Assembly: GCA_964365185.1 (NCBI GenBank)
Contig: CAYIOP010000005.1
Coordinates: 1-54,769 of the forward strand
Length of the DNA stretch: 54,769 nucleotides
From: an uncultured Candidatus Saccharibacteria bacterium
Lineage (GTDB): Bacteria; Patescibacteriota; Minisyncoccia; UBA6257; 2-01-FULL-56-20
Direction: 5' to 3'
Shown: piece after piece, positions 8,894-43,472 of the stretch
How the letters are laid out: the number at the start of each line of letters is the position of its first letter
Position numbering within the stretch: the stretch's first letter is position 1
The notes under the pieces: model-generated
The model's input: only the letters and a program-made list of their open reading frames with translations
Told to the model about the DNA's origin: nothing
Database searches by the model: none
Made by a program: the position numbers and the translations under genes

Positions 8894-9042
8894 CGCGCTC
8901 GTTTTTATTTTAAGAGAACCGGGGTTATTTAATTTCCAGCAAATTAAATCCCCCTACATCTCCTTCGCCGAACCCTCGCCAAGGCGAGGGGCCAAGCTTC
9001 GGCTTCAGTCCGATAGTTTCTCTTAAAATAAAAACGAGCGCG
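8894..9042. repeat. Structured intergenic element, copy 1 (TCCAGC-loop family)
   Basis: 25-bp perfect terminal inverted repeat; GAACC, TCCAGC loop (8935-8940), GCCAAGC, CCGATAGTTTC. Confidence 0.75.
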
Positions 9043-9160
9043 CTGGCGAGGGTGATAAAATCAAACAAGGTTGTTTCCTTGAAGCAATTTGGAAATATTG
9101 AATAAATATTTAATTATAATTGAGATATCGATGATTTTTGGAATGGGGTATAATAAAGGT

Positions 9161-9955
9161 ATGTCTAAAATAAATATTTATCGTTTAGTGGGCGTGGTCG
9201 CGGCTTTGGTAATTTTGGTTTTGATATTCGGGCTTCAGAAGTCGGATACAGAGCTTGATAAGATTTTAAGTCCGTATACGAATTCAAATGAGGAGCAAAT
9301 TCAAGGTAATCAAGATTCGCCACAAGATACAAAAAAGAGTATTCCGTCCGCTATTCCTAAAGTTCAAAGTCAATCAATTACTTTTCTTTCGCCAGTGGCA
9401 GGCACGCAGTGGGTGATTAACCAAAACAATATAATTAAATGGAATCGAGAGCCCGGAGTAACCGGAGGAATATATTTGGTTGATGCGATCACTGGTACTT
9501 TAGTGGGTTGGATAACGCCGACCATTACTTCTCATCAGAAAGAATATACTTGGGACACGCGGGATGTTTTACTTAATCGGCAAGGCGGATTAAAAAAATC
9601 AGTGGCAGTGGGTCGGTATATTTTGAAGATTAAGTTTGACCGGAACCAAGCCGATGCCCAAAGCGGTGAGTTTTCGATAGTATATGCTTCGCAGATAGAG
9701 CCGGTTATTTATAAAGCAACAATTAAAAACTTAATTTTTGCACCCAGTAGTTTAATTATTAATAAGGGCGAAAAAATAATTGTTCAAAACGACGACACCG
9801 TGAGCCATAAAATTATTGGGTATGGCATTGGCAGCTCGGTGACGCTTGCTCCTGGAGCTTCAATGACAGTTGAGACTAATGTTTTGGGCATCGGTGAATA
9901 CGAATATTATTCAGAAAGCTATGCTTCGGCTAAGTTAAAAGTGACGGTGAAATAG
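9161..9955 (+). CDS. Membrane-anchored protein with Ig-like and C-terminal cupredoxin-like domains
   Basis: TM anchor; FAPSSLIINKGEKIIVQNDD..H..GEYEYYS (Cu-ligand Cys apparently absent); start chosen 6 nt after TATAAT. Confidence 0.7.
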   Translation: MSKINIYRLVGVVAALVILVLIFGLQKSDTELDKILSPYTNSNEEQIQGNQDSPQDTKKSIPSAIPKVQSQSITFLSPVAGTQWVINQNNIIKWNREPGVTGGIYLVDAITGTLVGWITPTITSHQKEYTWDTRDVLLNRQGGLKKSVAVGRYILKIKFDRNQADAQSGEFSIVYASQIEPVIYKATIKNLIFAPSSLIINKGEKIIVQNDDTVSHKIIGYGIGSSVTLAPGASMTVETNVLGIGEYEYYSESYASAKLKVTVK

Positions 9956-10076
9956 AAAATAGAATTTAGAATAGAGGATTTAGGGTAAAAAAGAGGCAGA
10001 TCAAAAAATTGATGTTGTTTTTTTAAATTTGCATTTTTGGGAATTATCTTGTATAATATAGGTGAAAATTTAATAA

Positions 10077-10393
10077 GGGGACGATCGGCTTCGATAGAGA
10101 TAAATAGCTGAATTGCGAGTCGAGCGCCAACTCGTTAAACTAGCAAAAAAATTATAACTGCCAACTCTAATAAAGTTGCGGCTCCAGCTTTCGCTTACGC
10201 GTAAAGTTGGGATCGGTGAGTTTCGGGCTTCTTGAAATTCAAATCCGGTCTTATATAAGGAAGCTAGTTTTTAAATGATGATTCTGATTTAAAAACGAGA
10301 ACTAGAATCACTTTTGCCTCGCAAGAGGATACACTCGTAGATGGTTCAGTTTAAATATCTTTACACGGCAGTTCGATTCTGCCCGTCTCCACC
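10077..10393 (+). ncRNA. ssrA: tmRNA; tag peptide ANSNKVAAPAFAYA (10160-10204)
   Basis: 5' GGGGACGATCGGCTTCGA; 3' GGCAGTTCGATTCTGCCCGTCTCCACC; ATAACT-GCC resume context; Ala-rich tag; TATAAT upstream. Confidence 0.95.
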
Positions 10394-10394
10394 G

Positions 10395-10593
10395 AAATAA
10401 AACTACCTACCCTTGTGGTAGGTAGTTTTATTTTGTAGGGCAGAATCGAACTGGAAAGGGGTCGGGAAAACGGGAGTTTCCCCGTGTAGGAATCCGTCGG
10501 TTGACGGAACTAAAAACCGAGAGGTTTTTAGAAAATATTTTGCGAAAAGAAAAATATTTTGTTCGATAGCGAAGCGTCTGCCCGTCTCCACCA
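10395..10593. repeat. tmRNA-linked element with inverted and direct copies of the tmRNA 3' end (att-like)
   Basis: 17-bp hairpin 10395-10433; 10438-10453 is the reverse complement of 10369-10384; 10577-10592 repeats 10378-10393. Confidence 0.8.
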
Positions 10594-10597
10594 AAAA

Positions 10598-10954
10598 ATG
10601 AAGAAAATTAAAAAAACCATAGAGCGCCAGGCTATGGATTTCGTCATGGCTTTTGAAAGAAATAAGAAAAGGAATCCCAAAGATGTTTCAAAAACTAAAT
10701 GCGGCTATGACATTAGATCTAAAGGGAGAAAGATTGAAGTCAAAGGAGCTGCTCCATTAAATCAACCTTTTGTTAATTTTAATAAATATAATATCGCCGC
10801 TTTTAAAAAAGAAAATAATTTATGGCTATATATTGTTTGTGGTTTAAGAAATAAAAAACCAAAACTTATAATGCTTAATAAAAATAAAATTTTAAAAAGG
10901 AAAATAGTACATTCTCTTTGGAGAATTAATTTACATAGATCTGATTTAAAATAA
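10598..10954 (+). CDS. DUF3883/NOV_C-like PD-(D/E)xK nuclease-fold protein
   Basis: DVS..CGYDIRS..RKIEVKG..LWLYIV. Confidence 0.75.
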   Translation: MKKIKKTIERQAMDFVMAFERNKKRNPKDVSKTKCGYDIRSKGRKIEVKGAAPLNQPFVNFNKYNIAAFKKENNLWLYIVCGLRNKKPKLIMLNKNKILKRKIVHSLWRINLHRSDLK

Positions 10955-11053
10955 AGTAAATATTTTTGGAATCACTTCAATAGTGTAAGAGGCGTTCTTT
11001 CTACCTCCGATCGGTGGATGACCTTTTTGAAAACCTTTAACTCCTTTGGGCAT
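10946..11053 (-). pseudogene. Phage-like gene fragment MPKGVKGFQKGHPPIGGRK (35 codons)
   Basis: Manual translation; FxKGH..GGRK resembles N-termini of phage HNH/NUMOD or small terminase proteins. Confidence 0.35.
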
Positions 11054-11164
11054 GGTTAATATCAAAAACTACTGAACTATTGGTTTAATAACTTAATATC
11101 GCAAATTTGGAGAATCGTAAATTCCTTGAAAAACCAGATAAAAACGAGCATATTAGATGTGATA

Positions 11165-11482
11165 ATGAAAAAAGAAAATATTTTTGAATATAAAGGGCCA
11201 TCTTCGTTAAAAGAAATCGAGAAGAGATTACTTCAGATTGATGCAGAGAAGTCATCCCGTGTCCATAACGCAAAAGAAAATTATTCGGGGAGTTGGGGTG
11301 ATGAGATGGAAGTAAACGAAATTGCATATCTTGATGTGGAAAAAGATCAACTCCAACTCAAGCGTCAATTTATTTTAGATGGAAGGCACGACTGGAAAGC
11401 AAAACTCTTCTGGAATATTGTTGTACCAATCCTAGTTTCCGTAGCTACGGCAATTCTCGTATCTTTATTTTTAAGAAGATAA
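11165..11482 (+). CDS. Hypothetical protein with C-terminal TM helix
   Basis: Coiled segment then LFWNIVVPILVSVATAILVSLFL; 8 nt upstream of the next gene. Confidence 0.6.
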   Translation: MKKENIFEYKGPSSLKEIEKRLLQIDAEKSSRVHNAKENYSGSWGDEMEVNEIAYLDVEKDQLQLKRQFILDGRHDWKAKLFWNIVVPILVSVATAILVSLFLRR

Positions 11483-11490
11483 TCAACTTT

Positions 11491-13128
11491 ATGATTAAAC
11501 ATTCCGATGGCTCTATATACCTAGAACTGAATTCAAGAATTGGCGCAATTAATTTGGATGGTACGACCAGAACGTTTATCAGCGAAGACGACTTCAAAAA
11601 TGCCCTTAAGGGCTTTAGGCTGTTAGGGGCATTGACGGCACTAGGGTCTTTATCGAATAAGATATACGGCGGCGAAATACCGAATGGATGGGAGCGCTTA
11701 GGAAAGGGCTTAATAAGGCAGAAAGAAACAGGCCTTCTGATTAGCCAAAGCATGATTGAGTACCTCGAAAACCTCTTCATTATTTCGGGATCGAATGACT
11801 TCAAGACTCTTTCAATAACGGAGAAAGATAATCTTTTGGGGTTGTTTAATATTTATCAACACTCTCTAGTAATCGGGAGTATCCAAAGAAAAAATGTCAT
11901 ATCGATAATGGTCTCTCTCTGGCAAGAGCAATTAAGGACGCAGGCAAACGATTTGCAGTCTATCGGAAGAACTATCTATATGTTTCAGAAATTAGATCGG
12001 GAAATAATAAAGAACCAAACCTTAACCAAGATACTACACGACAATTCAGGTTTAACTATCGAGGAGTATTTAAATGCAGCATTGGTCTTATTAGCATGTG
12101 CCTTGGTCAATCCGATCATAATTATCGGCGATTTGAGTAGCGACAGTATAAATTTTCAAAAAATAATCAACAACTCAATACTCGAGCGATTTCTAATCTT
12201 ATTCAGCGCCACCTACGATGAATTTCGTTCCATCGATTCTACTCAAAATATAGCTCTAGCACCAAAAGATACAAGGAATAGGTTTAATCCTTTATGGAAA
12301 AAGCCGCTTATAAAATTTTCTGAATCTAAGTTTTTAGTGCCAAGCATTCCGACATACATACAGGCCGCATTCAACGGATTGTTTTGGTGGTTCGACGATC
12401 TCTTCATGAAAAAGCAGTTTGGTCATGAAATCTCGAAGACAACATTCAGAGAAATATTTGGTAAGGAGATATTTGAACAATATGTCGGCTTGATTCTTGG
12501 TGACATATTCGGAGATTCTCATTTAACCCCAGAAATCATATATGGAGGTAAAGGCAAGAAGGCTTTCACTGATTGGGTGGTAGTCGACGGCGATGATGCG
12601 TATTTAGTTGAGGTTAAAGCTTATCAATTTCCTTTCAAAACACTACAAACTGGCGACCTCGAAATGGTTGCACACGAAATAGCTAAAAAACTTACAATTG
12701 ATACGATCCAAAAGCTGGACAATAAAATACTAGATATCAATACTTCCGCTGAATTGAATTTTCTAAAAGGTAAAAATTTAATACCCGTTGTCATTACGTA
12801 TAATGTGCCGTTGATAGACACCAATCTTTATCGACACGGCATGAAAGATATATTGGATAATAAAACATATAAAATATTTAGCGAATTCAATGGTTATTTT
12901 TTAAATATTGCCGACCTGGAAAGTTTTAAATTGATATCAAAAGCAACAAAACTGAAAAACGTATTACTTCTCGCGAGAACAAATAATTCGAATTTCTATG
13001 CTGAAATCACGAAAATCTTAAAATCTGGTGAAGGTCCTTGGCCACAGAGTTTGCCGGAAAGACAATATCACGAAAGGATGGATTATATAACCACAATGCT
13101 GGGTTCTGATAAATTGGAAAAATTATAA
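11491..13128 (+). CDS. Large hypothetical protein with C-terminal PD-(D/E)xK (NERD-like) nuclease motif
   Basis: FNPLWKKPLI, FEQYV, FTDWVVVDGDDAYLVEVK; codon style unlike flanking genes. Confidence 0.7.
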   Translation: MIKHSDGSIYLELNSRIGAINLDGTTRTFISEDDFKNALKGFRLLGALTALGSLSNKIYGGEIPNGWERLGKGLIRQKETGLLISQSMIEYLENLFIISGSNDFKTLSITEKDNLLGLFNIYQHSLVIGSIQRKNVISIMVSLWQEQLRTQANDLQSIGRTIYMFQKLDREIIKNQTLTKILHDNSGLTIEEYLNAALVLLACALVNPIIIIGDLSSDSINFQKIINNSILERFLILFSATYDEFRSIDSTQNIALAPKDTRNRFNPLWKKPLIKFSESKFLVPSIPTYIQAAFNGLFWWFDDLFMKKQFGHEISKTTFREIFGKEIFEQYVGLILGDIFGDSHLTPEIIYGGKGKKAFTDWVVVDGDDAYLVEVKAYQFPFKTLQTGDLEMVAHEIAKKLTIDTIQKLDNKILDINTSAELNFLKGKNLIPVVITYNVPLIDTNLYRHGMKDILDNKTYKIFSEFNGYFLNIADLESFKLISKATKLKNVLLLARTNNSNFYAEITKILKSGEGPWPQSLPERQYHERMDYITTMLGSDKLEKL

Positions 13129-13276
13129 AATTACCTTAAACCAAATCCGACCTCATGTATGCCGGAGCACTAAAAACCTCGTAGATTATACGTATCAGAG
13201 TTTGCCAGTTATCCCGACTCGTTCCGCAATAAATTTATAAAATCGCATTTTTGGAGATTCCTGATAAACTTAATAA

Positions 13277-13861
13277 ATGGTGGCGGAAATTGCTGGATAT
13301 TTGTCGGGGCTGGCGATTTTGGCGTCTTTTGTGCCTTATATAAAAGACATTTTTTTAGGCAAGACAAAACCCGAGAGAATTTCTTGGTTGATTTGGACAA
13401 TACTCGGCGCGATTTCATTTTTCTCGCAGTTGGCTAAAGGGGCTTCGGATTCTTTAATTTTAACCGGCGCTCAAGCAGTGGGCGATTTTATTATTTTTAT
13501 CTTAGCGATTAAACACGGGATTGGAGGATTTTTAAAAAGAGATATTATCGCTTTAATTGGGGCGGGCGTAGGACTTTTTTTGTGGTACATAACTCAAGAA
13601 GCGGCAGTGGCGCTGTTCGTGGTGATTTTTATTGACGCGGTGGGCGCGGTTTTAACCGTGATTAAGTCCTACGAGAAACCGGCGACTGAAACTGTCAGTT
13701 CCTGGGTTTTAACTTTTGCCGGCGGTTTTTTTGCTTGTATAGCGGTGGGGAGTTTTAATTTTGTTTTGCTCTCATTTCCGGTTTATATTTGCTTAGCCAG
13801 CTTGGCGATTTTAGTTGCCATCAAAATGGGATTTAGGAGGGAGGTATTATTGCAGAAATAG
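13277..13861 (+). CDS. PQ-loop-like polytopic membrane protein
   Basis: About 7 TM; internal repeat PY..KPERISW / YEKPATETVSSW. Confidence 0.75.
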   Translation: MVAEIAGYLSGLAILASFVPYIKDIFLGKTKPERISWLIWTILGAISFFSQLAKGASDSLILTGAQAVGDFIIFILAIKHGIGGFLKRDIIALIGAGVGLFLWYITQEAAVALFVVIFIDAVGAVLTVIKSYEKPATETVSSWVLTFAGGFFACIAVGSFNFVLLSFPVYICLASLAILVAIKMGFRREVLLQK

Positions 13862-13865
13862 AATT

Positions 13866-14285
13866 TTACAAGTCGACAATATATTTTCTGATTGTGTTTT
13901 GAATATTAAATAAGGTTTTTTCATGAGATGAAGGTTTGCTCGCGGCTATGCCTTTGGCAAATTTATATAGGTTTGCGTTTTCTATTTTTAACCACTTGTT
14001 GTTTTTGTGAAGAAAATAAAGAAGTGCCATTATCGCGATTCGTTTGTTGCCGTTTTGGAAAGGGTGGTTTTTTATCATAAGGTAGAAAAGTATGCTGGAT
14101 TTTTGGATGAGACCGCGATAAAGGTCTTTTTTAAAACGAACAAAAGGTTGGTCAATGCAGCTTTCTAAAACTTTCGGAAAACGAGTGCCAAAATCTGGGA
14201 TGGGTTCATCCCAAGTCATAAATTTTTTCGCTAGAGTGAAAGCGGTGTATTCAATCTCCGCGACTGTTATGCGTTTTGGCCTCAT
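13866..14285 (-). CDS. Fic/Doc-family toxin
   Basis: HPFQNGNKRIA motif. Confidence 0.9.
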   Translation of the reverse strand: MRPKRITVAEIEYTAFTLAKKFMTWDEPIPDFGTRFPKVLESCIDQPFVRFKKDLYRGLIQKSSILFYLMIKNHPFQNGNKRIAIMALLYFLHKNNKWLKIENANLYKFAKGIAASKPSSHEKTLFNIQNTIRKYIVDL

Positions 14286-14536
14286 TCTCTCCCGAGTTTT
14301 CTAAAAGTTTCTCCATAATCCCTAAGAGCTCGGTCTATAACTTTTTCAATATCTTGCTTTTTTTCAGCGCCGATTGATTTTCCCAGCGCTTCCGCGAGCG
14401 CGTTATGGGAAATAATATAATTTCGACCAACTTTTTCGGCCTTAATCTTGCCTAATTTTATTTTTCTGAAGACCTCAATGCGGCTTATTCTTAAAGCGTG
14501 GGCTGCTTCAATAGTTGAGTAGAATGTTTTGGGCAT
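14282..14536 (-). CDS. HTH (excisionase-like) antitoxin cognate to Doc
   Basis: YSTIEAAHALRISR..KVGRNYII; C-terminal RALRDYGETFRKL; 4-nt overlap with the toxin. Confidence 0.8.
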   Translation of the reverse strand: MPKTFYSTIEAAHALRISRIEVFRKIKLGKIKAEKVGRNYIISHNALAEALGKSIGAEKKQDIEKVIDRALRDYGETFRKLGRE

Positions 14537-14538
14537 AT

Positions 14539-14566
14539 TTATATAGTAACATATGTTACTATATAA
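14539..14566. promoter_or_regulatory. 28-bp perfect palindrome, likely TA autoregulatory operator
   Basis: TTATATAGTAACATATGTTACTATATAA, 2 nt upstream of the antitoxin ATG. Confidence 0.75.
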
Positions 14567-14621
14567 GCAAGTTTAATGTTTGCGTGGTTTTATGGTTTTG
14601 GACTAGTGTATAATATTTTGT

Positions 14622-16412
14622 ATGGTTGCAAATTCCGAAAGCCGAATATGCCAGAATTGTAAAGGTTCTTTCGTTATAGACGTTCAAGATTTTGGGTTTT
14701 ATGAAAAAATAAAAGTTCCTCCGCCGACTTTTTGTCCGGAGTGCCGGTTTTATCGGCGATTAGCTTGGCGGAATGATTGGCATGTTTTTAAGAAAAAAGA
14801 CGCCTTAACCGGAAAGGAAATATTTTCTTTGTTTCCAGAGGAGAGCCCAGTGAAGATTTTCGAAAAAGAATATTGGCTTTCGGATGCTTGGGATTCGATG
14901 GATTATGGCCGGGATTATGATTTTTCCAAGACATTTTTTGAACAATTTCGAGATTTGCACCAAACAGTTCCGATTGCGGCACATTCAATCCATAATTTAA
15001 CTAATTGTCAGTACTGCGCGAATGCTAACAATATGAAGAATTGTTATTTTGTTCGGGCGGCGACTTTTACCGAGGATTCGGCATATTTGGTTTGGGACCA
15101 CGCTTCACGTTTTTCATTTGATAGCCACATGACCATTCGTTGCGAGTTGAGTTATGGGAATTTAAACACCATAAATTGCTATAAAACTTTTTTCTCGGTG
15201 GATTTGGAGGATTGCCAAGAAATGATTCTTTGCGCGGATTGCGTTGGCTCGAATAATTGTTTTGGGTCATTCGGACTTAGAAATAAGTCGTATCATATTT
15301 TCAATGAACCATATTCAAAGGAAGAATATTTTAAGAAAATTAAAGAGCTTAACTTTGGGTCTTATGAGTCGTTGGTGGCGCTCCAAAAAAAGGCCTTTGA
15401 GCATTGGCAGAGGTATCCGCATAAGTATATGCACGGCCGGCGGAATTCTTCGGTAAGCGGGGACTATATCTACAATTCCAAAAACGCCAAGGATTGTTTC
15501 CGGACCAGGGAAGTTGAAGATGTGAAATGGTGCCAGAATATTTTGCAGGGCGCTGTGAATAATTGTTATGACTACACGAATTGGGGGCAAAACGCGGAGC
15601 TGATGTATGAAACCTTGGTTGCGGGCGACAATGTCTCGATGATTAAATTTTGCTCGCAGGTTTGGCCAAATGTTAAAAGCTTAGAGTACTGCATCTTTTG
15701 CCAGAATTCTTCGGACCTTTTTGGCTGCGTGAGTTTAAGGAACAAACAGTATTGTATTTTTAACAAGCAGTATTCCAAAGAGGATTATTTTAAATTGCGG
15801 GAAAAAATTATTAAGCAGATGAATGAGATGCCATATATTTCGGCGGGAGGGCAGGAGTATCGCTACGGAGAATTTTTTCCGGCAGAATTCTCTCCTTTTC
15901 CTTATCAAGTTTCGGCGGCTTATGAATTTATCCCGCTGTCGGAGGAAGAGGCGAAAGAGAAAGGGTATGCCGCGTATTCAGTAGAAAAACCGGATTATAA
16001 AACAACAATTAAGGCGGATGATTTACTGGATCAGATTCAAGATGTTAAAAATGACATTTTAAACGAAGTGATTGAATGCGCCCACGCGAGCCGAGGGTGT
16101 TTACATGAATGCACCCGGGCCTTCCGGATTGTTGACCGGGAGCTGGATTTTTGTAAGAGAATGGAAATACCTCTGCCGCGTTTATGCGTGAATTGCCGGT
16201 ATTTTGAACGGCTAATATTTCGTAACCCACCGATACTTTATCGCCGTGAATGTGATTGTTCGGGTAAAAAATCAAAAAATAATATTTATCAAAATACCGC
16301 GGGGCATTTTCATGGCGAGGGGCGGTGTCTGAATGAATTTGAAACGTCTTATTCTCCGGAGCGACCGGAGATTGTGTACTGCGAGCAGTGCTACCAAACA
16401 GAAGTGGCGTAG
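14622..16412 (+). CDS. CPR-type cysteine-rich zinc-ribbon/repeat protein
   Basis: CQNCK, PPPTFCPECR, many C-x-N/C repeats, PRLCVNCR, VYCEQCYQ. Confidence 0.85.
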   Translation: MVANSESRICQNCKGSFVIDVQDFGFYEKIKVPPPTFCPECRFYRRLAWRNDWHVFKKKDALTGKEIFSLFPEESPVKIFEKEYWLSDAWDSMDYGRDYDFSKTFFEQFRDLHQTVPIAAHSIHNLTNCQYCANANNMKNCYFVRAATFTEDSAYLVWDHASRFSFDSHMTIRCELSYGNLNTINCYKTFFSVDLEDCQEMILCADCVGSNNCFGSFGLRNKSYHIFNEPYSKEEYFKKIKELNFGSYESLVALQKKAFEHWQRYPHKYMHGRRNSSVSGDYIYNSKNAKDCFRTREVEDVKWCQNILQGAVNNCYDYTNWGQNAELMYETLVAGDNVSMIKFCSQVWPNVKSLEYCIFCQNSSDLFGCVSLRNKQYCIFNKQYSKEDYFKLREKIIKQMNEMPYISAGGQEYRYGEFFPAEFSPFPYQVSAAYEFIPLSEEEAKEKGYAAYSVEKPDYKTTIKADDLLDQIQDVKNDILNEVIECAHASRGCLHECTRAFRIVDRELDFCKRMEIPLPRLCVNCRYFERLIFRNPPILYRRECDCSGKKSKNNIYQNTAGHFHGEGRCLNEFETSYSPERPEIVYCEQCYQTEVA

Positions 16413-16518
16413 CGTTGTTATGACGTGTCATAGCAACGGAGATTTTAGACATGTGGCAGGGATTGGAATTTTTTCGAGAATTAGAAAAGGGGCGAGCTAA
16501 AATTTTAGCAGGCCCCTT

Positions 16519-19744: not shown

Positions 19745-19814
19745 ATTTAATTATGGAAGGTGTCTTAACGGGGTCAAGGATTTTAGGGGATAGTTGGTGG
19801 ATAAGTTTTTACTC

Positions 19815-19947
19815 GTATTTTCATTTTTAGGAACCGCGTTTCAGTTCACTCCAGCGGCGAACTGTCCGCTGCTTCTCGGTGCTAAAAGTTACCTAAGGCG
19901 ACACCAAGCTTTTAGCGCCTCCGAAAGCTTCCTAAAAATGAAAATAC
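19815..19947. repeat. Structured intergenic element, copy 2
   Basis: 19-bp perfect terminal IR; GGAACC, TCCAGC loop (19850-19855), TGCTTCTC, ACCAAGC, CCGAAAGCTTCC. Confidence 0.75.
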
Positions 19948-20069
19948 TCGCTCTAGGGCAAAGATGTTATTAGAGATTTTGGAGAAAATAAAAAGAGCGA
20001 TAACGAGTGGATTATGAAGATTAATCGGTGGATAAGTTGGAAAAGGGTGGGGATATTTTTTTTCTAATT

Positions 20070-31126: not shown

Positions 31127-31136
31127 TGCTTAAAAT

Positions 31137-32829: not shown

Positions 32830-32859
32830 AAGTCGGATTATTAATTTGATTTTTTTAGT

Positions 32860-34815
32860 ATGGATAAATTATTGACTTTTGGTTTGGCGGCAGTAGCCGT
32901 TCTTTTTAGCGTGGTTTTAATAAAGTTGATTAAGAAATTTCCTCCGGGGAATGAGAAGATGTTGGCGATTAGAGACGCCATTAAAGAAGGTTCCAAGAGT
33001 TATCTTCGCCGCCAAAATAAAACCGTTGCCATAGCGGCATTAGTCATCGCAATTATTCTTTTTATAACGTTAGGATGGCTCACGGCCTTAGGGTTTTTGG
33101 CAGGAGCGTTTTTTTCGGCCCTAGCCGGATATTTAGGAATGATGACGGCGGTAGACACTAATTCCCGAACTACGGAGGCGGCGAGAGGCGGAATGGCGCC
33201 GGCTTTTAGAGTGGCTTTTTTAGGCGGATCAGTGACGGGTTTTTTGGTGGTGGGATTAGGGCTCTTTTTAGTGTCTTTGTTTTTTAATTTATTCGACGAC
33301 ACTCGGGCTTTAATCGGACTCGCATTTGGCAGTTCTTTAATTTCTGTTTTTGCGCGACTGGGCGGCGGAATTTTTACTAAAGCCGCGGATGTGGGCACGG
33401 ATTTGGTGGGTAAGGTTGAGGCGGGTATTCCTGAAGATGACCCTCGAAATCCCGGAGTGATTGCGGATAATGTGGGAGATAATGTTGGTGATTGCGCGGG
33501 AATGGCGGCGGATCTTTTTGAGACCTACGCGGTTACGCTTACAGCGGCGATTTTGATTGGCGCTACGGCTTTCTCCGGCGGCCAGGCGGCTTTTCCGCTT
33601 ATCTTAGGGGGTTTGGCGATTTTAGCTTCGATTATCGGCAGTTTTTTTGTGAAATTAGGAAAAAATGGCTCAATTATGGGAGCGCTTTATAAAGGACTTA
33701 TCGTGGCTTTAGTTTTGTCGGCCGTATTTTTCTTTTGGGCAGCTTGGAAATACTTTCCGGATAATTTTGTAGAAGTTTATCTTTCGAGTTTAGTGGGGCT
33801 CGTTGTCACTGTATTGATGGTTTGGGTGACGGATTATTATACTTCAAAAAAATATCGGCCGGTTAAGTCAATCGCAGAGGCGTCGCAATCTGGCCACGGA
33901 ACCAATATTATTTTAGGACTTTCAGTTGGGATGGAGGCGACTTTTATTCCGATTTTAATAATTGTGGCGGGAATATTGGGGGCTTACGCTCTATTTGGTC
34001 TTTATGGTATAGCGATTGCGGCGACCGCTATGCTATCGGTTGCCGGAATTATTGTGGCGATTGATTCTTTTGGGCCGATTACGGACAACGCAGGTGGAAT
34101 TGCGGAGATGACCGAGGCGCCAAAAGAAATTCGGGAAGTTACTGATGCCTTAGATGCTGTTGGCAATACTACTAAAGCCATAACTAAAGGTTATGCAGTG
34201 GCATCCGCCGGGCTCGCGGCGCTAGTTCTTTTTGGTGAGTATTCTCATAGGTTTAAGGATATTGTTTTTGAGATTCAGGATCCGCTCGTTTTAGCCGGAT
34301 TGCTTTTGGGTGCGGCGATACCTTTTTTGTTTGCTTCGATGGCAATGAAAGCCGTGGGTAAAGCAGCGGGTTCGATTGTTGAGGAAATTAGGAGACAATT
34401 TCGAGAGATTAAAGGTTTAATGGAGGGTAGAGCAAAGCCAGAGTACGGACGAGCAGTGGATATTGTGACGCGAGCCGCGCTTAAAGAAATGGTAGTGCCA
34501 GCGCTTTTGCCGATTGTAAGCGTGGTGGCGGTGGGGTTGATTTTGGGACCAAAGGCAGTGGGTGGATTTTTAATCGGCGTGATTATCTCAGGGCTCTTTG
34601 TGGCGATTTCAATGACAGCGGGCGGAGCGGCTTGGGATAATGCCAAGAAATATATCGAAGGCGGGAATTTTGGCGGCAAGGGAAGCGAGGCGCATAAGGC
34701 GGCAGTGACCGGAGACACCGTGGGCGATCCTTATAAAGATACGGCTGGGCCGGCAATTAATCCCTTGATTAAAGTAATAAATATTGTGGCGTTGCTAATG
34801 ATTCCGTTTTTATAA
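32860..34815 (+). CDS. hppA: Membrane-bound pyrophosphatase, K+-independent type
   Basis: [33 protein letters not shown] (Lys indicates K+ independence), [10 protein letters not shown]. Confidence 0.96.
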
Positions 34816-34817
34816 AT

Positions 34818-34960
34818 TAGCAAGTCGATTTGCTTTTCGGAACCGGCGGTTCAATTATTCCAGCGATAATTGCCCGCCTGCCTCTCGGCATCGCTATTCG
34901 CTTCGCGAAACCGAGCTAGCGATACCTGCGAGAGCTTCCTTAAAACAAATCGGCTTACTA
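34818..34960. repeat. Structured intergenic element, copy 3
   Basis: Imperfect terminal IR; GGAACC, TCCAGC loop (34859-34864), TGCCTCTC, ACCGAGC, GCGAGAGCTTCC. Confidence 0.75.
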
Positions 34961-35014
34961 GAATTTTTAGCTACTTGTCTATTTTTTAAATAGTGATTAG
35001 AATTATTAGAAATT

Positions 35015-35699: not shown

Positions 35700-36221
35700 T
35701 TATATTGAGGTTGTGACGCCGGTGTTTCCGATTTTAGGAATAGGTATAGGTATAACGAGGATTGTTTCTCCGGCCGGCCGTTGTTTTTTTATCGCTTCGA
35801 GCACAGATACTGAGCTTTTCTTTCTACTGCTTAAACAACCAAGGAAAGTAAGATTGGTAGGGTTTTGGGGTGCGTATATTTGTAAGTCCCCTTCTGGGTC
35901 GAATTCTATCTCTACCTTGGGTTTCCCCTCGGCGAGGTAGATGGAGGTGTCGTGGCGGTTGCGAACTGTGATCGTGCTTTCGGGATATTCTTGTTTGATT
36001 GTATCTGCGGCCGACTTAGCTTCCCAAAGAGATCTCTTTTTATTACTTCGATCAATTGGGATAGATATAACCAAACATTCTGTTTCATTACCAGGTTCTT
36101 GGCGAAATACGCCAAAACAGTTTTTGGGAGTTCGCTGCCTTTTTTTGTCTCCATTCGTGGTTTGATCAAGTTTTGTGAGGCCTTCATTTTGTTTTGCTTT
36201 CGTGTTTCCTACTCGGTGCAT
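35700..36221 (-). CDS. Hypothetical protein
   Basis: GGAGG SD before ATG; hairpin at ~35641-35667 downstream. Confidence 0.5.
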   Translation of the reverse strand: MHRVGNTKAKQNEGLTKLDQTTNGDKKRQRTPKNCFGVFRQEPGNETECLVISIPIDRSNKKRSLWEAKSAADTIKQEYPESTITVRNRHDTSIYLAEGKPKVEIEFDPEGDLQIYAPQNPTNLTFLGCLSSRKKSSVSVLEAIKKQRPAGETILVIPIPIPKIGNTGVTTSI

Positions 36222-36387
36222 CTTATCCTCCTTGGATTAGATGAAAGGTTAAAGGTTTATGTTATGACAAGGAACAGAAATTTATTATATAAAACTGTAG
36301 ATTAAAAAGTCAACTGGGGATTAGTTTGCATGGAATTAAAACTCGGCTTTTAGCGAGGTGGTGGTTGTGATAGAATTGGATTTAATA

Positions 36388-37656: not shown

Positions 37657-37700
37657 TATTTCAGTTATATCGAAATCCTTTTTTAATTTGGCTTTTTAAG

Positions 37701-38510
37701 TTATTTATTACTAATGAAATCGTTGTATGTGTAAGTGTTCGAGTGTAGTATTGGTGTGTGGTGACTTAAAATATTGGGTCCTCCCATAATAGCCCAACAC
37801 GGTTCTTTTTCAGCATAATTTTGATAACTAAAGTCCCAAGCAACATCTAATTGATTAGTATCTTGATCTTCTATTCTGACTTGGTATTCAATTTCTTTAG
37901 ATCTTGAAGACGGGGTGATTGCTGCTGGATTAATTGGAAGTACAAATTTAATAATTTTGGGTATGCTGGCCTCTATTATAATTTCCTGTTTTTTTCCCCA
38001 ACCTTTAGAGAAATCTCCGCTGCCTGCTCCTGTTTCTAGCGTGATTTTAGCCTGGCCAGTATAATTTTTACTGTTTAATACGAACGCAGGAATGAGAGCT
38101 TCAATTTTTCCTTCAATATTACGTTCGGCTGTTTCGGAAAAATCACTAATGTTATATCTATCTCCATATTGAACAAGTTGTATTTTACACCGAGCTTGTT
38201 CTGCTTCTTTATTATCCAGATATGGTTTTGATGAATAGTATCCCCAAATTTTTAAAGTTAGAAAACCTAATAAACATAGACCAACCGTAATCGCAATGGA
38301 GATAGTAGTAGATTTTGAACGTTGTTGTGTTTTTCGGAATGTAAAAAAATAACTTAAGCATAAAATTAATGCTATCCCCCAAAGAAAGGGAATGAGTAAA
38401 ATACTCATACCACAAAACCATCCATTACATGTTTGCGCGTCATAATAAATAATTCCTGTTAAAATAAATAATATTCCCAGGACTATTATGTAGAAAGGAT
38501 GAGATTTCAT
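37701..38510 (-). CDS. Hypothetical membrane protein (3 TM plus extracellular domain)
   Basis: Three hydrophobic helices; CNGWFC loop. Confidence 0.7.
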   Translation of the reverse strand: MKSHPFYIIVLGILFILTGIIYYDAQTCNGWFCGMSILLIPFLWGIALILCLSYFFTFRKTQQRSKSTTISIAITVGLCLLGFLTLKIWGYYSSKPYLDNKEAEQARCKIQLVQYGDRYNISDFSETAERNIEGKIEALIPAFVLNSKNYTGQAKITLETGAGSGDFSKGWGKKQEIIIEASIPKIIKFVLPINPAAITPSSRSKEIEYQVRIEDQDTNQLDVAWDFSYQNYAEKEPCWAIMGGPNILSHHTPILHSNTYTYNDFISNK

Positions 38511-38604
38511 TTGGTTGTATTATAACATTTTTTTTTGAGTTAAGCTTCAATGTTTCTATTTATAAATCAAAATAAGATGGCACGAGGGCATCTTATTTTG
38601 TTAC

Positions 38605-38678
38605 TGGAGCGGGTAACGGGAGTCGGACCCGTGTCTCCACCTTGGAAGGGTGGCATAATACCGTTATACGATACCCGC
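38605..38678 (-). tRNA. tRNA-Gly(TCC)
   Basis: GCGGGTA acceptor; loop CTTCCAA; T-loop TCCGACT; encoded CCA. Confidence 0.92.
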
Positions 38679-38773
38679 TTAAAGTCAGTGGATTAAATTT
38701 ATCACTGTTTTTTTTAATTTTCAATTAATCATCTAGCTTGATTATTGGGCTTAAATTTGTTAAAAACATCTAA

Positions 38774-39370
38774 ATGGCGAGCTTATTTAAAAAACCTAAG
38801 ACATACATTTTAGCTTTCATTGTTTTTATAGGCATTTATTTTGCCGCGTCTTTGGTTCAGTCATTTAGCGGCGGAGTGCCGGCGGAATTCTCCGAAGCTC
38901 GACTTCAGGGCGCTTTGATTGCTCAAAATATCGTTAATCTTTCGAATAAATCGGTTAGTAGCTTAGATGAGATTAATCAATTGGATAAGCAGAGAAATTT
39001 TAAGAAAGCGCTAAATTTAGTGACGGACGCCATTGATCAAAGCCAGGAAGTGAGAAATGAAGCGGTTAAATTGTCGGGCGAGCTTGAAAAGATGACATTG
39101 GCGCTCGCGGATTTAAAATCCTTTGAGGCAAGAGAAGCCGCGCTTCAAGGTATTAGCAATCATTTGGCGCTTTTAACACGACTTATTAATTACAGCGGAT
39201 ATTTAACTAATCTTTTGGAAATACTTCGGGGTCGGTTTAGCGGGGATTTGCCTTATAATAATCAAGTAGGAGTTTTGATCAGCCAGATTAATTCTGAGGT
39301 AAACGCCATTAATAGTTTTAATAAACAGGCGGTTCAAGCGATGGAGAGGTTTGATGTTTTGACTAGGTAG
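38774..39370 (+). CDS. Membrane-anchored coiled-coil protein
   Basis: N-terminal TM followed by heptad-rich helices. Confidence 0.75.
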   Translation: MASLFKKPKTYILAFIVFIGIYFAASLVQSFSGGVPAEFSEARLQGALIAQNIVNLSNKSVSSLDEINQLDKQRNFKKALNLVTDAIDQSQEVRNEAVKLSGELEKMTLALADLKSFEAREAALQGISNHLALLTRLINYSGYLTNLLEILRGRFSGDLPYNNQVGVLISQINSEVNAINSFNKQAVQAMERFDVLTR

Positions 39371-39424
39371 ATTAGGTGATAGGTGGCAGGTTATAGAAAA
39401 TAAAAATAGCCATACAGAAAATTT

Positions 39425-39497
39425 GGGCCAGTAGCTTAGGGGTTAAAGCACCGCCCTTATAAGACGGGGATCGATGGTTCGAATCCATCCTGGCCCA
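39425..39497 (+). tRNA. tRNA-Ile(TAT)
   Basis: GGGCCAG/CTGGCCC acceptor; loop CTTATAA; T-arm GATGG-TTCGAAT-CCATC; discriminator A; CCA not encoded. Confidence 0.88.
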
Positions 39498-39510
39498 CAG
39501 AAGTATTTAA

Positions 39511-39574
39511 GCAGGCGATAGTGCCGTACCAAGCTTTGCTTTGGTATCGGTGTTCGATCCCTGCCGGACCGACA
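39511..39574 (+). pseudogene. tRNA 3'-half relic interrupted by a palindrome
   Basis: GCAG..[GCCGTACCAA..TTGGTATCGGT]..GTTCGATCCCTGCCGGACCGACA. Confidence 0.5.
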
Positions 39575-39637
39575 ATATTTAAAGATCTCCCCAAGGGATA
39601 TTTTTAGAAATGAGCTATAATTTAGGTAAATTTTAAA

Positions 39638-41422
39638 ATGGCCAATCAAGAACTTTTGGATTATTTGAAACAGTTTTTAAAAAATGGCCAGAGTTTAGAG
39701 GTGATAAAAGAAAAGCTTTTGGGCATTGGTTGGAGCGAGGCGGATATTAACGCGGCGATTTCAGAACTTAATTTACTGAAGCCCGGAGAAGAATCGAGGT
39801 CAGTAGTTCAAACTGGGGTTAGGACCCCAAATGTTTTAGGGGCGGAATCAACCCCCGCTCATTCTAAGCTGGGAAAAATTTTAAGTTTAGTGGTGGCGAT
39901 TTTAATTTTGGGCGGCGGTGGAGCTTACGCCTATTATTTTTATTCAGGTGAGTCGCCGAATGACATTTTAAGAGAGGCAGTTTTAAATACGCTTGAAGTT
40001 AAAAGTTCAGAGGTAAGCGGTAAAATAAATTTAGTTTACGAGGGAGTGCTCGCTTCAATATTTGGGGGAGCTGGTGAAGGCGAGAAAGTAAATTTCAATT
40101 TAAATTTTGTCGGCCAGAATGATTCGAGCGACGTAAAAAATTTGAAGGCCTTGTATGAATTAAAATTAGGATTTGGAGTGCAGGATTTTTTGAACTTTCA
40201 ATTTGCCGCGGATGTGATGGTTGCAGGGAATGTGGTTTATTTAAAGCCCAAAAATCTTGATAGCATCGCGACCTGGTTTGGGCTTATGGGAAGTGAAGTG
40301 GATTTGAGCTCGTTTGATAATAAATGGATTAAAATTGAAACGAAAGATTTAGAGCAGCTTCCTTTAAGTAATGGCTTGATGTTAAAAGATAATCCCTTTC
40401 GAGTGGTTTTAGGCCAGAGGCCGACGTTGGCTTTTACTGCCGGAACTTTGGGCGGGGTGGATTTTAACCAAGATGACACCGAGAAAATAAAATCGATCTT
40501 GCGAGATAATCAATTTTATTTGGTTCAGGAAAAATTAGAAGACGAGCAGATAGATGGGGAGGCGGCCTATCATTTTAGAATCGGCGTGAATTTGCCAATT
40601 CTTAAAAAGAGTTTAGTTGAATTGAACGATTTTATTTACTCGAAAATGAATCTAAGTGATGAAGAGAAAAGCGCCAGTTTGGCGGAGATGGATGATTTTT
40701 TGGCTAATAATTCGAAATATTTGAAATTTAGAACCCACGAGATTTGGGTTACAAAAAATTCTAAATTTATTAAGAAGGCGGCGTTGGGAGTTGATTTTAT
40801 GATTCCTGAGAGTGGCGATGTTATGGAGGTGGATTTGGAAGTCGTCAATTCTAAATTCAATGAGTTCGTAACTCTAGAAGAACCTAAGGACGCTTTGTCT
40901 TTTGAGGATTTGTTGGCTGATTTTTTTGGAACTAATTTAGGTAATTCTGGATTATTGGGCCAAAGTAGAGATTCAACTCGGATATCTGATTTAGCAACCC
41001 TTAAGAGCGCCATTTCTTTGTATTTAGCTGATGTGTCGAAACCATCTATTTGTGATGGTAAGAATTATATTTACAGTTCAACTTTAATTAAACCGCCAAC
41101 TGGATGGAAAATCGGAAAGAACTCTGGAAGTAAGGCCGTGGATGGAACTGGTTGGATTCCTGTTAATTTGGAGGAGGTTTCTTCTGGCTCTCCAATCGCT
41201 GAAATGCGTTTGGATCCAGTTAACAATTCTTCTAAGAAACAGGTTTATCTTTTCGCGTGCGATCCGAAAACTTTCGAATTTGAACTCAATACCCGTTTTG
41301 AGAGCGAAAAATTTATAACGGGTTATGCGAAAGACGGTGGAGATGACCCGGCAATTTATGAGACAGGAACTTCTTTGGGATTCAAACTTATTCCCAAAGG
41401 TTTTTGGGATAATTCTTTTTAG
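39638..41422 (+). CDS. Membrane-anchored protein with C-terminal type IV pilin-like domain
   Basis: Shared N-terminal module, TM, beta-rich middle, SRDSTRISDLATLKSAISLYLAD, DPVN, FELNTRFES. Confidence 0.75.
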   Translation: MANQELLDYLKQFLKNGQSLEVIKEKLLGIGWSEADINAAISELNLLKPGEESRSVVQTGVRTPNVLGAESTPAHSKLGKILSLVVAILILGGGGAYAYYFYSGESPNDILREAVLNTLEVKSSEVSGKINLVYEGVLASIFGGAGEGEKVNFNLNFVGQNDSSDVKNLKALYELKLGFGVQDFLNFQFAADVMVAGNVVYLKPKNLDSIATWFGLMGSEVDLSSFDNKWIKIETKDLEQLPLSNGLMLKDNPFRVVLGQRPTLAFTAGTLGGVDFNQDDTEKIKSILRDNQFYLVQEKLEDEQIDGEAAYHFRIGVNLPILKKSLVELNDFIYSKMNLSDEEKSASLAEMDDFLANNSKYLKFRTHEIWVTKNSKFIKKAALGVDFMIPESGDVMEVDLEVVNSKFNEFVTLEEPKDALSFEDLLADFFGTNLGNSGLLGQSRDSTRISDLATLKSAISLYLADVSKPSICDGKNYIYSSTLIKPPTGWKIGKNSGSKAVDGTGWIPVNLEEVSSGSPIAEMRLDPVNNSSKKQVYLFACDPKTFEFELNTRFESEKFITGYAKDGGDDPAIYETGTSLGFKLIPKGFWDNSF

Positions 41423-43257
41423 GCCGCAACCAGTTTAATCTTAAAAGGTTTTAGGAGGTTATAAAATTCCTCTTGCTCCAAAGTTTCTTTTTCAAGCAGG
41501 GTTTGGGCGATTTTTTTAAGCGCTTGTTTATTGGTCTTGACGATTTTTTGAGCTAGTTCGTAGGCATGAGTGATGAATTTTTTAATTTCTTCGTCAATTT
41601 GAGTGGCGGTTTTGTCGGAGTAGTTTTTTTCAGTGGCGATTTCTCGGCCCAAAAAGATAAGTTCTTCGGTGTTGCCAAAAGTCATTGGGCCTAAGGCTTC
41701 GCTCATGCCATAGCGAGTGACGAGTTTGCGAGCGAGTTCTGAGGCCTCTTTTAGGTCATTGGAGGCGCCGGTTGAGATATCGTTGAAAGTAGATTGTTCG
41801 GCCGCAAAACCGCCCATCATCACCGCTAGTTCGTTTAAGAATTGGGATCGGGTGCGAAGGCGGCGTTCTTCAATTGGGAGTTTTAGGGTGTAACCGCCAG
41901 CCATGCCGCGGCTGATGATGGTGACTTTATGAACTGGGTCGGAGTCCTTGAGGGAGGCGGAGACAACAGCGTGGCCAGCTTCGTGATAGGCGACAATTTC
42001 TTTTTCTTTTTGCACGATAACTCGACCGCGACGTTCAGGTCCCAAGAGTACTTTTTCGATTGATTCAAATAAATCGTCTTGGAGAACAATTTTTTGGTTT
42101 TTGCGGGCGGCGAGGATGGCGGCTTCATTAAATAAATTAGCTAGGTCGGCGCCGGAGAAACCAGGGGTGCGAGCCGCCACTTTTTTTAAATCCACATTTT
42201 TGTCGAGCGGTTTGCCTTGGCTGTGAATTTTTAAAATTTCCTCTCGGTCGTTTAAATCCGGTAAATCTAAAATAACGCGGCGATCAAATCGGCCGGGTCG
42301 AAGCAGGGCGGGGTCTAAGACGTCTGGACGGTTGGTGGCGGCTAAAACAATAATGCGGGATTCGCGGTCAAAGCCGTCAAGCTCCACCAGAATTTGATTT
42401 AGGGTTTGTTCGCGTTCATCATTGCCGCCGCCCAAGCCCGCGCCGCGTTGACGGCCGACAGCGTCGATTTCATCAATAAAAAGAATAGAGGGAGAGGCCT
42501 TTTTGGCAGTAGAGAAGGCGTCCCTAATACGAGCGGCGCCGACGCCGACAAACATCTCCACAAATTCTGAGGCGGAGACATGGAAAAAAGGAACATTGCT
42601 TTCGCCAGCTACTGCTCGAGCAAGAAGTGTTTTACCAGTGCCGGGGAGACCGACTAAGAGTACACCTCGGGGAATTTTGGCGCCTAGGTCAAGGAATTTT
42701 TTGGGGTTTTTTAAGAATTCAACCACTTCTATCAACTCTTCTTTAGCTTCTTTTAATCCAGCCACATCTTTAAAGAGAATTTTTTCTTTGCCAAAGATGG
42801 AGAGGCGAATAGTGGAGCGGCCAAAGTTGAAGGCCTGGTTAACGCCGGTTTTGGCTTGGCGAAACATCATCCAGAAAATAAAACCAATAATTAAGATGGG
42901 TAAAAGAGCAGGAATTAAGATGCCAGCCCAGAATTGCCAACCTGATTGTTCTTTAATGTTTAAGGCCACTTTTTGAAGGGCCGTGGTTTCAACGCCTAGA
43001 TTTTTTAGAGTATCAGTGAATCCGGTGCCACCTTCTTTTTTAGAGAGGCCCTTGGTTTTGTCTTGAAATTCTATTTTTAATTCTTCACCCGAGACCTCGA
43101 TTTGAGTAACTTCGCCGGCATTAATTTTTGCAGCCAGCTCATTTAAACTAACGGCTCTTGGGGTTTCTTTTTTTTCCATAAAAACGGAAAAAAGAAGAGA
43201 GATAATAATTAAAGTGGCGATGGTCCAGAGAACGTGTTTATAAAAATTATTAGTCAT
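41419..43257 (-). CDS. ftsH: ATP-dependent zinc metalloprotease FtsH
   Basis: 2 [32 protein letters not shown]. Confidence 0.98.
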
Positions 43258-43310
43258 AAGGGTCTTAAGATTTTAAACAAAAAAATGATTTTTGGAAAGG
43301 GGGTAAAATT

Positions 43311-43472
43311 TTAAAGAATCCATATCGTTTCGCTATCACTTAAGTCCCCAGCGAGGACTTTCGTTGGCATAAAATCTTGCTCTCCTTCGGAACCGTGCCC
43401 GCCCCGCCTACGCCGAAAGCTTCGGCGGGCAGGTCGATTTTATAGCCGCGCGAAAATATATGGATTCTTTAA
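43311..43472. repeat. Structured intergenic element, divergent copy 4, with a nested REP-like palindrome
   Basis: 15-bp terminal IR; AAGTCC-CCAGCGA-GGACTT hairpin; ACCGTGC; nested palindrome 43402-43433. Confidence 0.6.

Follow-up and report, generated by a model that had tools for sequence, protein, structure and literature searches.

Introduction

Single-strand transposition of the IS200/IS605 type is tied to the replication fork. attC sites, about 60-140 nt in length, carry extrahelical bases, fold in a strand-specific manner, show an effect of replication orientation and start near a co-directional stop codon. Single-strand origin and single-strand initiation (sso/ssi) signals are orientation-dependent, folded single-stranded DNA (ssDNA) of 100-200 nt, with conserved loops on variable stems. 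Here we describe a structured intergenic repeat from an uncultured Candidatus Saccharibacteria bacterium. Three copies lie in the window, by which we mean the whole stretch of DNA analysed (contig CAYIOP010000005.1, 54,769 nt), at 8894-9042, 19815-19947 and 34816-34962, all on the + strand. Few known genomes are as small and streamlined as those of the Patescibacteria (Candidate Phyla Radiation, CPR); this one still devotes about 0.5% of its DNA to the element.

A repeat family with a conserved three-way junction

An earlier reading of the sequence alone (the original prediction) had proposed a family with one order of parts at these three sites and covariation despite unrelated stem sequences. 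Both proposals were upheld. The three sites hold every stem and motif of that description: the stem pairs ATTTAATT/AATTAAAT, CAGTTC/GAACTG and CAATTAT/ATAATTG, the further pairs GCCGAA/TTCGGC, GGTGCTAAAA/TTTTAGCGCC and ATCGCTA/TAGCGAT, and the motifs GAACC, a TT bulge, a TCCAGC loop, CCRAGC and CGADAG-YTTC. Single-sequence folds of the three copies score far better than their shuffles (z = -9.7, -7.1 and -4.8; 0/200 shuffles as good).

The element is 125-150 nt long and consists of helices P1, P2 and P3a-b-c. The terminal stem P1 (13-33 bp, median 19.5) is A/T-rich, with a T-rich 5′ arm and an A-rich 3′ arm, and closes with GAA/UUC. It is followed by a CC linker and by P2, made up of a short G+C stem, a UU bulge, a 7-9-bp stem and the loop UCCAGCG. 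P3a pairs CUnCnUCUC with CGAnAG and P3b spans 6-10 bp, beyond which lie a 3′-side internal loop, ACCAAGC, and a small variable hairpin, P3c. The predicted order of parts stands; its segments TRCHTCTC and CGADA had been placed as unpaired, and these do pair, as helix P3a, one position of which covaries as A-U/U-A/C-G. The core is thus a compact three-way junction, with linkers of 0-2 nt.

RNAalifold applied to the 21 copies of the genome to which the window belongs returned 43 pairs, 39 of them with compensatory changes. We also examined 52 model-aligned copies from many genera, in which 94.3% of 2197 cells form standard pairs, compared with 60.2% in shuffles (0/500 reach the observed value). 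Both sides vary in 41/43 pairs, and the covariation score is 0.843 vs at most 0.155 in slid controls, where partners were shifted by 1-3 columns. These results confirm that the family is real and its fold conserved, and the compensatory changes support the three-way junction.

Distribution of the family

The window is the whole of contig C5 of an 832-kb, 14-contig, 98.9%-complete genome (G000, the own genome; positions elsewhere in it are given as contig:position). A strict regular expression matched 7 copies there, and iterated nhmmer identified 21 full-length copies on 11 contigs, from which the covariance model R1 was built. A covariance-model search for more copies had been suggested along with the original prediction, and it was productive. 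R1 scores the 21 own copies at 76-126 bits and gives 7 weaker matches besides. Among 61 related genomes (own counted) the element is found in 34, with 1-32 copies each where present. This sample comprises the own genome, 36 genomes of the same family, of which 25 carry the element, and single-genome samples of 24 other families in the order, of which 8 do. Single-copy genomes carry high-scoring copies (104-112 bits). In an even sample of the phylum the element occurs in 7 of 151 genomes, again with the own genome included.

A scan with an exact pattern over one genome per species (185,579 species) matched 35 stretches. Thirty-two of these belong to metagenome-assembled genomes (MAGs) titled Liptonbacteria, Parcubacteria, Paceibacterota, Patescibacteria group or (TPA) Saccharibacteria, and the other 3 to one MAG titled just 'uncultured bacterium', with no match outside Patescibacteria-type MAGs. 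Viral contigs gave 0 pattern matches.

No named family had been recognised in the element, and no Rfam family matches it. Rfam 15 run over the whole window matched a transfer-messenger RNA (tmRNA) and 3 tRNAs and nothing at the element sites, and for a 196-nt slice searched on both strands at E<=10 the best match reached 16.8 bits, where the gathering score is 116.6. A search of the full-text literature found no description of such an element in the opening parts of the abstracts. The family is in no catalogue searched; it is a lineage-restricted structured intergenic repeat family of Patescibacteria (Parcubacteria/Paceibacteria-type). We also observed a variant without the UU bulge, in two near-identical copies of 46-52 bits (G000 C7:15149-15259, + strand; C3:50099-50214, - strand), a pair that shows several sub-lineages side by side in one genome.

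Orientation and pairing of the written strand

All copies on any one contig of the own genome share one direction, and in 21/21 own copies the written strand is assigned to the leading (G-rich) strand. This direction equals the sign of the local GC skew in 19/21 own copies, with the remaining two at about zero skew. Among copies from other genomes, raw local skew agrees with copy direction in 39/50, or 31/35 at |skew|>0.05. To separate replication from transcription, we split off the transcription component of the skew and used the strand component R, the mean over + and - genes; 34/71 copies are not evaluable for R because a single gene orientation prevails nearby. R agrees with copy direction in 12/12 evaluable own copies, in 19/25 copies from six other genomes, and in 28/30 at abs(R)>0.03. 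The rule extends to the 6/21 own copies that lie antisense to both neighbouring genes, whereas tRNA genes show no bias: of the 40 that lie on contigs to which a sign was assigned, 22 are co-oriented and 18 opposite.

The polarity can be read from the relative G033, in which the skew turns from - to + exactly at dnaA. On that same contig a copy at 5 kb, left of dnaA, is '-' and a copy at 305 kb, to the right, is '+', from which it follows that the written strand is the leading-strand sequence and hence the lagging-strand template. Copies in the distant genome G089 also cluster by direction per contig (C12, 4/4 '-'; C5, 4/5 '+'). Together these data support an orientation that tracks replication, not transcription. 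The original prediction had left the active form as ssDNA or RNA, and of the two a replication-linked orientation fits an ssDNA process. The model also has practical uses: in fragmented MAGs it can indicate which way replication runs, and it points out a repeat that is probably a cause of broken assemblies.

The strand asymmetry of the own genome is itself unusual: |GC skew| is about 0.2 on some contigs and about 0.05 on others, just about half of the coding DNA lies on the G-rich strand and, unlike in G033, the skew does not flip at dnaA (C2:13334-13822, -).

Pairing was counted over 97 unique copies, leaving out the conserved loop-closing U·G. Beside 3689 Watson-Crick pairs, the written strand has A·C in 100 and C·T in 99 cases, as against 54 for G·T and 7 for G·A. 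Mismatches of the wobble type had been predicted to fit both strands, which these counts refine: A·C and C·T exceed G·T and G·A, and the complement would have the milder mismatches G·T (100) and G·A (99), along with A·C (54). In the acceptor and T stems of own-genome tRNAs, G·U (22) outnumbers A·C (4) beside 439 Watson-Crick pairs, so that the pairing of the written strand does not resemble that of RNA. An excess of A·C and C·T limited to operon copies was considered and rejected, as operon-embedded copies and the others show it alike. The written strand is also C-rich (skew -0.15) though it lies on the G-rich chromosomal strand, an asymmetry that therefore opposes the compositional pressure of the genome. 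Quasi-palindrome correction is a DNA-level, arm-to-arm templating process; stems that turn over completely yet pair almost exclusively by Watson-Crick rules would also be in keeping with templating of this kind.

Copy turnover and a proposed mode of action

Own copies have a median identity of 53% over 210 pairs, with a few close pairs among them. The copies at C2:3794 and C8:6531, on different contigs, are 96.9% identical, and two more pairs reach 90-91%. In near-identical copies the similarity ends a few bases outside P1, just past short end boxes. Near-identical copies share P1, and on this ground we rejected the idea that main-family elements copy P1 from the flanking target DNA when they insert.

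Comparison between genomes points the same way as the close pairs. The window copy between hppA and clpP (34816-34962) is absent in the 6 other genomes of the genus, whose spacers measure 68-166 nt. Among 80 metagenomic clpP loci there are 0 elements upstream of clpP and 1 locus with an element downstream; the best metagenomic ClpP relative, 83% identical, is too distant for a site comparison at strain level. Of 33 elements in other genomes that are syntenic with the own genome, 23 lack a counterpart here. Mobility, or at least duplication to new loci with frequent loss, is well supported, and the mobile, non-autonomous behaviour foreseen in the original prediction is in line with the 0-32 copies among relatives, the 96.9% pair and the hppA-clpP copy.

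The strict replication-strand rule, which tRNA genes do not follow, and the non-RNA-like pairing indicate an ssDNA step. On this basis the reading that we rank first, with a confidence somewhat short of even, is a mobile repeat, structured and non-autonomous, that works as folded ssDNA at the replication fork. The A/T-rich terminal stem would close the junction and display the unpaired UCCAGCG loop, the UU bulge, the ACCAAGC internal loop and the UCUC/CGAnAG helix. A putative protein would recognise these displayed nucleotides, leaving the stem sequences to drift freely. Copies would be gained and lost between species and at times amplified within a genome, and their insertion or retention would be tied to the fork, as in IS200/IS605-type transposition, with the written strand as leading-strand sequence and lagging-strand template. 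Selection would then filter the copies, so that within operons only those in sense orientation, directly behind a stop codon, survive. We infer from this scheme an ssDNA intermediate, a protein partner, and loops that serve as recognition or cleavage sites.

Partner enzymes and conserved positions

Several observations weigh against a mobile ssDNA repeat, and they concern its partner enzyme, its positions, its mismatches and its place among genes. A six-frame protein-family search of the own genome gave no match to Y1/HUH (PF01797), TnpB, IS110, rve or DDE_Tnp_1 (the Y2 family carries no weight, as its control matched nowhere). Of 60 relatives 16 have Y1-like genes, 13/33 of those with the element and 3/27 of those without it; the association is weak and comes from related genomes. 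No element lies within about 3 kb of any of the ten such genes that were inspected, and an IS200-like copy in G007 has TGTAAA hairpin loops, unlike the loops of the element. With a weak association and no adjacency a Y1/HUH partner was rejected, and the REPIN/HUH-substrate-like identity that had been proposed is not supported.

Some intergenic positions also persist across genomes. About 5 occur in more than one genus, one of them in three: C1:149205 with G017 and G020, C2:8642 with G017, C1:4231 with G007, C5:8915 approximately with G017, and C10:14806 with G001. These positional orthologues share the upstream flank and keep the fold intact, and every stem sequence differs. The shared positions and the single copies of 104-112 bits look like selection at the locus, from which a purely selfish relic would not benefit. 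No exact empty site is demonstrable, the intergenic DNA of congeners being too diverged, and no target-site duplication either. Finally, the mismatch spectrum favours folding of the strand opposite to the written one, the template of the leading strand rather than that of the lagging strand on which IS200/IS605 relies; this fold could be the selected one, or free G could be disfavoured near the C-rich loops.

The remaining enzymes of interest are a reverse transcriptase (RT) and a recombinase. The single RT of the own genome is group-II-intron-like (G000:C3:114501-115559, -, 353 aa) and scores 141.6 bits, short of the cut-off, with the model for group II RT/maturase. It lies outside the window, directly upstream of and adjoining a polA-type 5′-3′ exonuclease gene, and its orthologues, with 60-68% identity, are widespread in the family and unrelated to the repeat. 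The co-occurrence of an RT gene had been put forward as a check, and it failed in both directions: G009, G017, G020, G034 and G051 hold 6-10 copies and no RT, and G016, G018, G019, G024 and G025 have the RT and no element. An RT partner was rejected on both counts. One XerC/XerA-like protein is the sole recombinase found in the own genome, and this tyrosine recombinase scores 106.9 bits against an integron-integrase cut-off of 265.

Gene context and alternative readings

The last group of opposing observations comes from the flanks, for which 96-98 copies were analysed. In 31/96 unique copies P1 begins between -12 and +10 nt relative to the stop codon of a co-directional open reading frame (ORF), and in just 5/96 is the 3′ end as near to a convergent stop. 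In the abutting set the next co-directional start follows 9-90 nt on in 21/31 copies, so these are packed within operons in sense orientation. The abutted stop codons are TAG in 17, TAA in 7 and TGA in 7 cases, as compared with 25% TAG among 739 ORFs of the own genome (binomial p 4e-4 with this one genome as baseline). Five copies lie a few bases behind co-directional tRNA genes. The 31:5 polarity and the tRNA-trailing copies show that transcription sense matters.

Sense-only placement behind stops and tRNAs, a fixed upstream box and fold-keeping orthologues are better explained by a functional sense RNA, for which spread would be secondary. Such an RNA could act in cis in 3′ untranslated or intercistronic regions, stabilising or processing the mRNA or coupling translation across the long stem, or it could belong to a small-RNA family that binds G-rich targets or a protein through its C-rich loops (UCCAGC, UCUCC, ACCAAGC, UCCGA). 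The very strong covariation across genera and the retention of high-scoring copies in single-copy genomes speak for it, and the depletion of G at mismatched or unpaired positions could be negative design that frees the C-rich loops. Copies outside operons often have the 9-mer TGTGGATAA upstream at a fixed distance. Allowing at most 1 mismatch, this 9-mer is found upstream in forward orientation in 17/98 copies, upstream in reverse in 0 and downstream in 1.

Other evidence speaks against an RNA. Its stems would have to tolerate more A·C and C·U than G·U, opposite to own-genome tRNA stems, and its direction would have to follow the replication strand even in copies antisense to both neighbours. 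Canonical promoters and U-tract terminators do not flank the copies, while tRNA and tmRNA genes have sigma-70-like promoters. On the written strand the three window copies have no sigma-70-type promoter (>=10/12) and no predicted terminator, and across the family the 3′ flank is T-rich at +1 alone (65/96), with no T run, and with no terminator-like site at the window copies. The 9-mer was rejected as a sigma-70 -10 element, as its final T is missing and the tRNA and tmRNA genes here use TTGACA/TATAAT-type promoters. No gene class is associated with the element; at single-copy loci there is no consistent neighbour, and RuvB, MurD, a SLOG protein or a FAD oxidase adjoins it. Copy number also ranges from 0 to 32 among close relatives. 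On balance we regard a sense-strand RNA, the chief alternative to the mobile repeat, as possible and somewhat doubtful.

The same 9-mer bears on a third reading, a polar DNA site that serves the host, in which folded ssDNA would be read by a housekeeping protein for priming or restart, for recombination, or as a Xer substrate. Single-strand origins, Chi and the FtsK-orienting polar sequences KOPS are all oriented with replication, a comparable logic, and the strict orientation of the element, its several positions conserved across genera and the lone XerC/XerA-like protein fit such a site. So does the arrangement in the 17/98 copies, where a GC cluster separates the 9-mer, which we take to be equal to the canonical DnaA box, from the A/T-rich stem downstream. 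In the own genome the 9-mer with a box variant (GCTCG, CACTC, GTTCG or ACTCG) within 12 nt occurs at 7 sites, 6 of them at elements; we take the combination to belong to the unit rather than to mark an empty target. Some copies have GTCAAGG in place of the 9-mer, which on the other strand reads as a -35 TTGACA.

A polar host site nevertheless appears improbable. It is dispensable, not being found in 27/60 relatives (many 97-100% complete) or in 144/150 genomes phylum-wide, its copy number varies 30-fold, and a polarity with respect to stop codons is not expected of a replication site. In two genera, moreover, three such 9-mer boxes stand in a row upstream of mraZ, with the element between boxes and mraZ, and the 9-mers, to judge by this match, may be MraZ operators. 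Boxes of the form TG(T/G)GGATAA recur in intergenic DNA, in the window at 19796-19804 and ~20029-20040, and at L079:9940-10010 and L097:12880-12950.

A new self-cleaving ribozyme or other catalytic RNA on a small mobile unit could be imagined, by analogy, from the compact junction, the few invariant unpaired nucleotides, the many copies and a long closing stem like that of some small circular or retro-elements, and is very improbable given the absence of an Rfam match on either strand, junction linkers of just 0-2 nt, pairing statistics that are not RNA-like and a sole RT that does not co-occur with the element.

Copies in the window

Copy 1 (8894-9042, +; fold z -9.65, R1 120.2 bits) has a P1 of 25 perfect pairs (8894-8918 with 9018-9042), with GAACC at 8916-8920. 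Its P2 spans 8921-8953, with the TT bulge at 8925-8926 and the loop TCCAGCA at 8935-8941, and its P3 spans 8955-9017, with the internal loop CCAAGC at 8992-8997 and CCGATAG at 9010-9016. A left extension at 8885-8901 (+) consists of TGTCAA (8885-8890) and then a GC-rich box, GCGCTCG, which is also present at other copies. On the minus strand TGTCAA is the -35 TTGACA of a promoter-like site that points at infC (TTGACA-18-TAGAAT, 11/12 matches, minus strand 8890->8861). A distance of 4 nt separates the -35 of this infC promoter-like site from the end of copy 1, and the same hexamer recurs beside other copies; judged from these positions, the repeat may supply an outward-facing -35 element. Downstream of copy 1 lies a full-length tmRNA gene (10077-10394, +; 126.5 bits) with a good TTGCAT-N17-TGTATAAT promoter upstream, and in the relative G017 the positional counterpart of copy 1 directly adjoins the tmRNA gene.

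Copy 2 (19815-19947, +; R1 117.1 bits) has a P1 of 19 perfect pairs (19815-19833 with 19929-19947) and a left extension at 19796-19815 (+), which reads GGTGGATAA, with 8/9 matches to TGTGGATAA, and then TACTCG. In three DNA runs (X4-X6, depth 5-9) we observed a contig joint from 20647 back to 19458, with AAT between, that encloses copy 2. At 85% likeness this may be noise; a duplication junction and a rearranged relative are other possible sources. The contigs of the DNA runs, short and of low depth, show no joint that skips copy 1 or copy 2.

Copy 3 (34816-34962, +; R1 109.1 bits) has a P1 of about 24 pairs, among which are two A·C, one G·U and a 2x2 pyrimidine mismatch. It starts 2 nt past the TAA (34813-34815) of an ORF at 32860-34815 for an H+-pyrophosphatase-like (hppA-like) protein, and its end is 54 nt upstream of the clpP start (35015).

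A second family

A fourth site in the window, 43311-43472 (+), had been described as a divergent relative of the three copies, a description that fits only loosely. The shared CCAGCG loop is there; membership in the main family is not, as R1 does not match the site even at E<=1. It has a 15-bp terminal stem, the hairpin AAGTCC-CCAGCGA-GGACTT and GGAACCGTGCCCGCC, and it matches a separate nhmmer profile, class B, with E 3.6e-23. This profile was built from 5 sequences (43311-43472, C7:29431, C7:32441, C2:94989 and C6:34263) and gave 2 further copies, so that there are at least 5-7 in the own genome. Class B copies have in common a long P1, a hairpin loop CCAGCGA and GAACC(A/G)TGCCCGC, and each of them points in the direction of the main-family copies that lie on its contig. 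Site 43311-43472 is a member of a second family, not a diverged main-family copy, with the CCAGCG hairpin loop common to both. In the class B copies C7:29431, C7:32441 and C2:94989 the outermost 5 bp are wholly different yet complementary (TCGGA/TCCGA vs CCCAA/TTGGG), a stem switch over short divergence that is not expected from gradual compensatory mutation.

Comparison with known systems

Whether as a mobile ssDNA repeat or as an RNA, the element may be the substrate of an undescribed, Patescibacteria-specific single-strand nucleic-acid system that recognises it by its UCCAGCG and ACCAAGC loops, an idea we offer as no better than possible. In one variant of such a system, fork-coupled transposition or recombination would be the work of the lone Xer-type enzyme or of a protein that belongs to none of the known HUH, DDE, tyrosine and serine transposase families; in the other, the element would be a structured RNA class whose genes must be co-oriented with replication. 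The family gives a handle on a putative enzyme or RNA-binding factor in bacteria not yet grown alone.

Like repetitive extragenic palindromes (REP), their mosaic elements (BIME) and the REPIN-RAYT systems, the element is short, intergenic, multi-copy, palindromic, non-coding and defined by structure, with a copy number that varies between relatives, and REP/REPIN are likewise thought to act as folded ssDNA. A REP is a simple imperfect hairpin of 20-40 nt, frequently in inverted pairs, whereas the element measures 125-150 nt and folds into a three-way junction whose loops are conserved and whose stems covary fully. Such repeats typically flank a RAYT gene; neither a RAYT/Y1 gene in the own genome nor an element beside the Y1-like genes of relatives was found. 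To our knowledge, strict replication orientation and stop-codon abutment are not defining traits of REP.

With IS200/IS605 elements and their ORF-less derivatives (palindrome-associated transposable elements, PATEs) the element shares a fork-tied orientation and the use of hairpins rather than a terminal inverted-repeat sequence, and its short end boxes resemble their cleavage and target motifs. It differs in that its left and right hairpins are unlike each other and a long stem joins its ends, in that the own genome is without TnpA/TnpB and the IS200-like copy of G007 has unrelated hairpin loops, and in that its mismatch spectrum indicates the strand opposite the lagging-strand template. A miniature inverted-repeat transposable element (MITE) of the DDE type is a poor match as well: the outer P1 is not conserved in sequence and the own genome has no rve or DDE_Tnp_1 match. 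Of 96 copies, 37 have GCTCG at the 5′ end, 39 have CTCGC at the 3′ end and 28 have the two together, in direct orientation; these are the same sequence everywhere and hence not shown as duplications.

Like attC sites, the element keeps its structure while its sequence varies and has extrahelical bases, and it resembles them in length and in strand-specific folding with an effect of replication orientation. An attC site begins at or near the stop of a co-directional cassette ORF; 31/96 copies of the element abut a co-directional stop, and the ORFs concerned are housekeeping genes such as hppA. The attC consensus RYYYAAC/GTTRRRY is absent, the inner P1 reading RRGAAC...GYTTCY, and the copies are dispersed over 11 contigs rather than arrayed beside intI, with a Xer-like recombinase below the integron-integrase cut-off. 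Structured non-coding RNAs of the Rfam type (e.g. HEARO, multi-copy small RNAs) resemble it in size, in a multi-helix junction, in invariant loop nucleotides and in compensatory changes; the element departs from them in matching no Rfam family, in G·U pairs that are not enriched, in an orientation set by replication, and in having no promoter, terminator or associated protein gene. The sso/ssi signals occur as a single copy on plasmids and phages, whereas the element is chromosomal, multi-copy and absent from viral contigs. REP/RAYT, IS200/IS605-PATE, DDE-MITE, attC and Rfam membership each fail on at least one tested defining feature. Traits that normally occur apart are combined here: the stems covary to the degree known from riboswitches, copies come and go as repeats do, orientation keeps strictly to the replication strand, and placement after stop codons is in the sense direction only. 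This makes the family a clean test case for whether a conserved 'RNA-like' structure can be maintained at the level of DNA.

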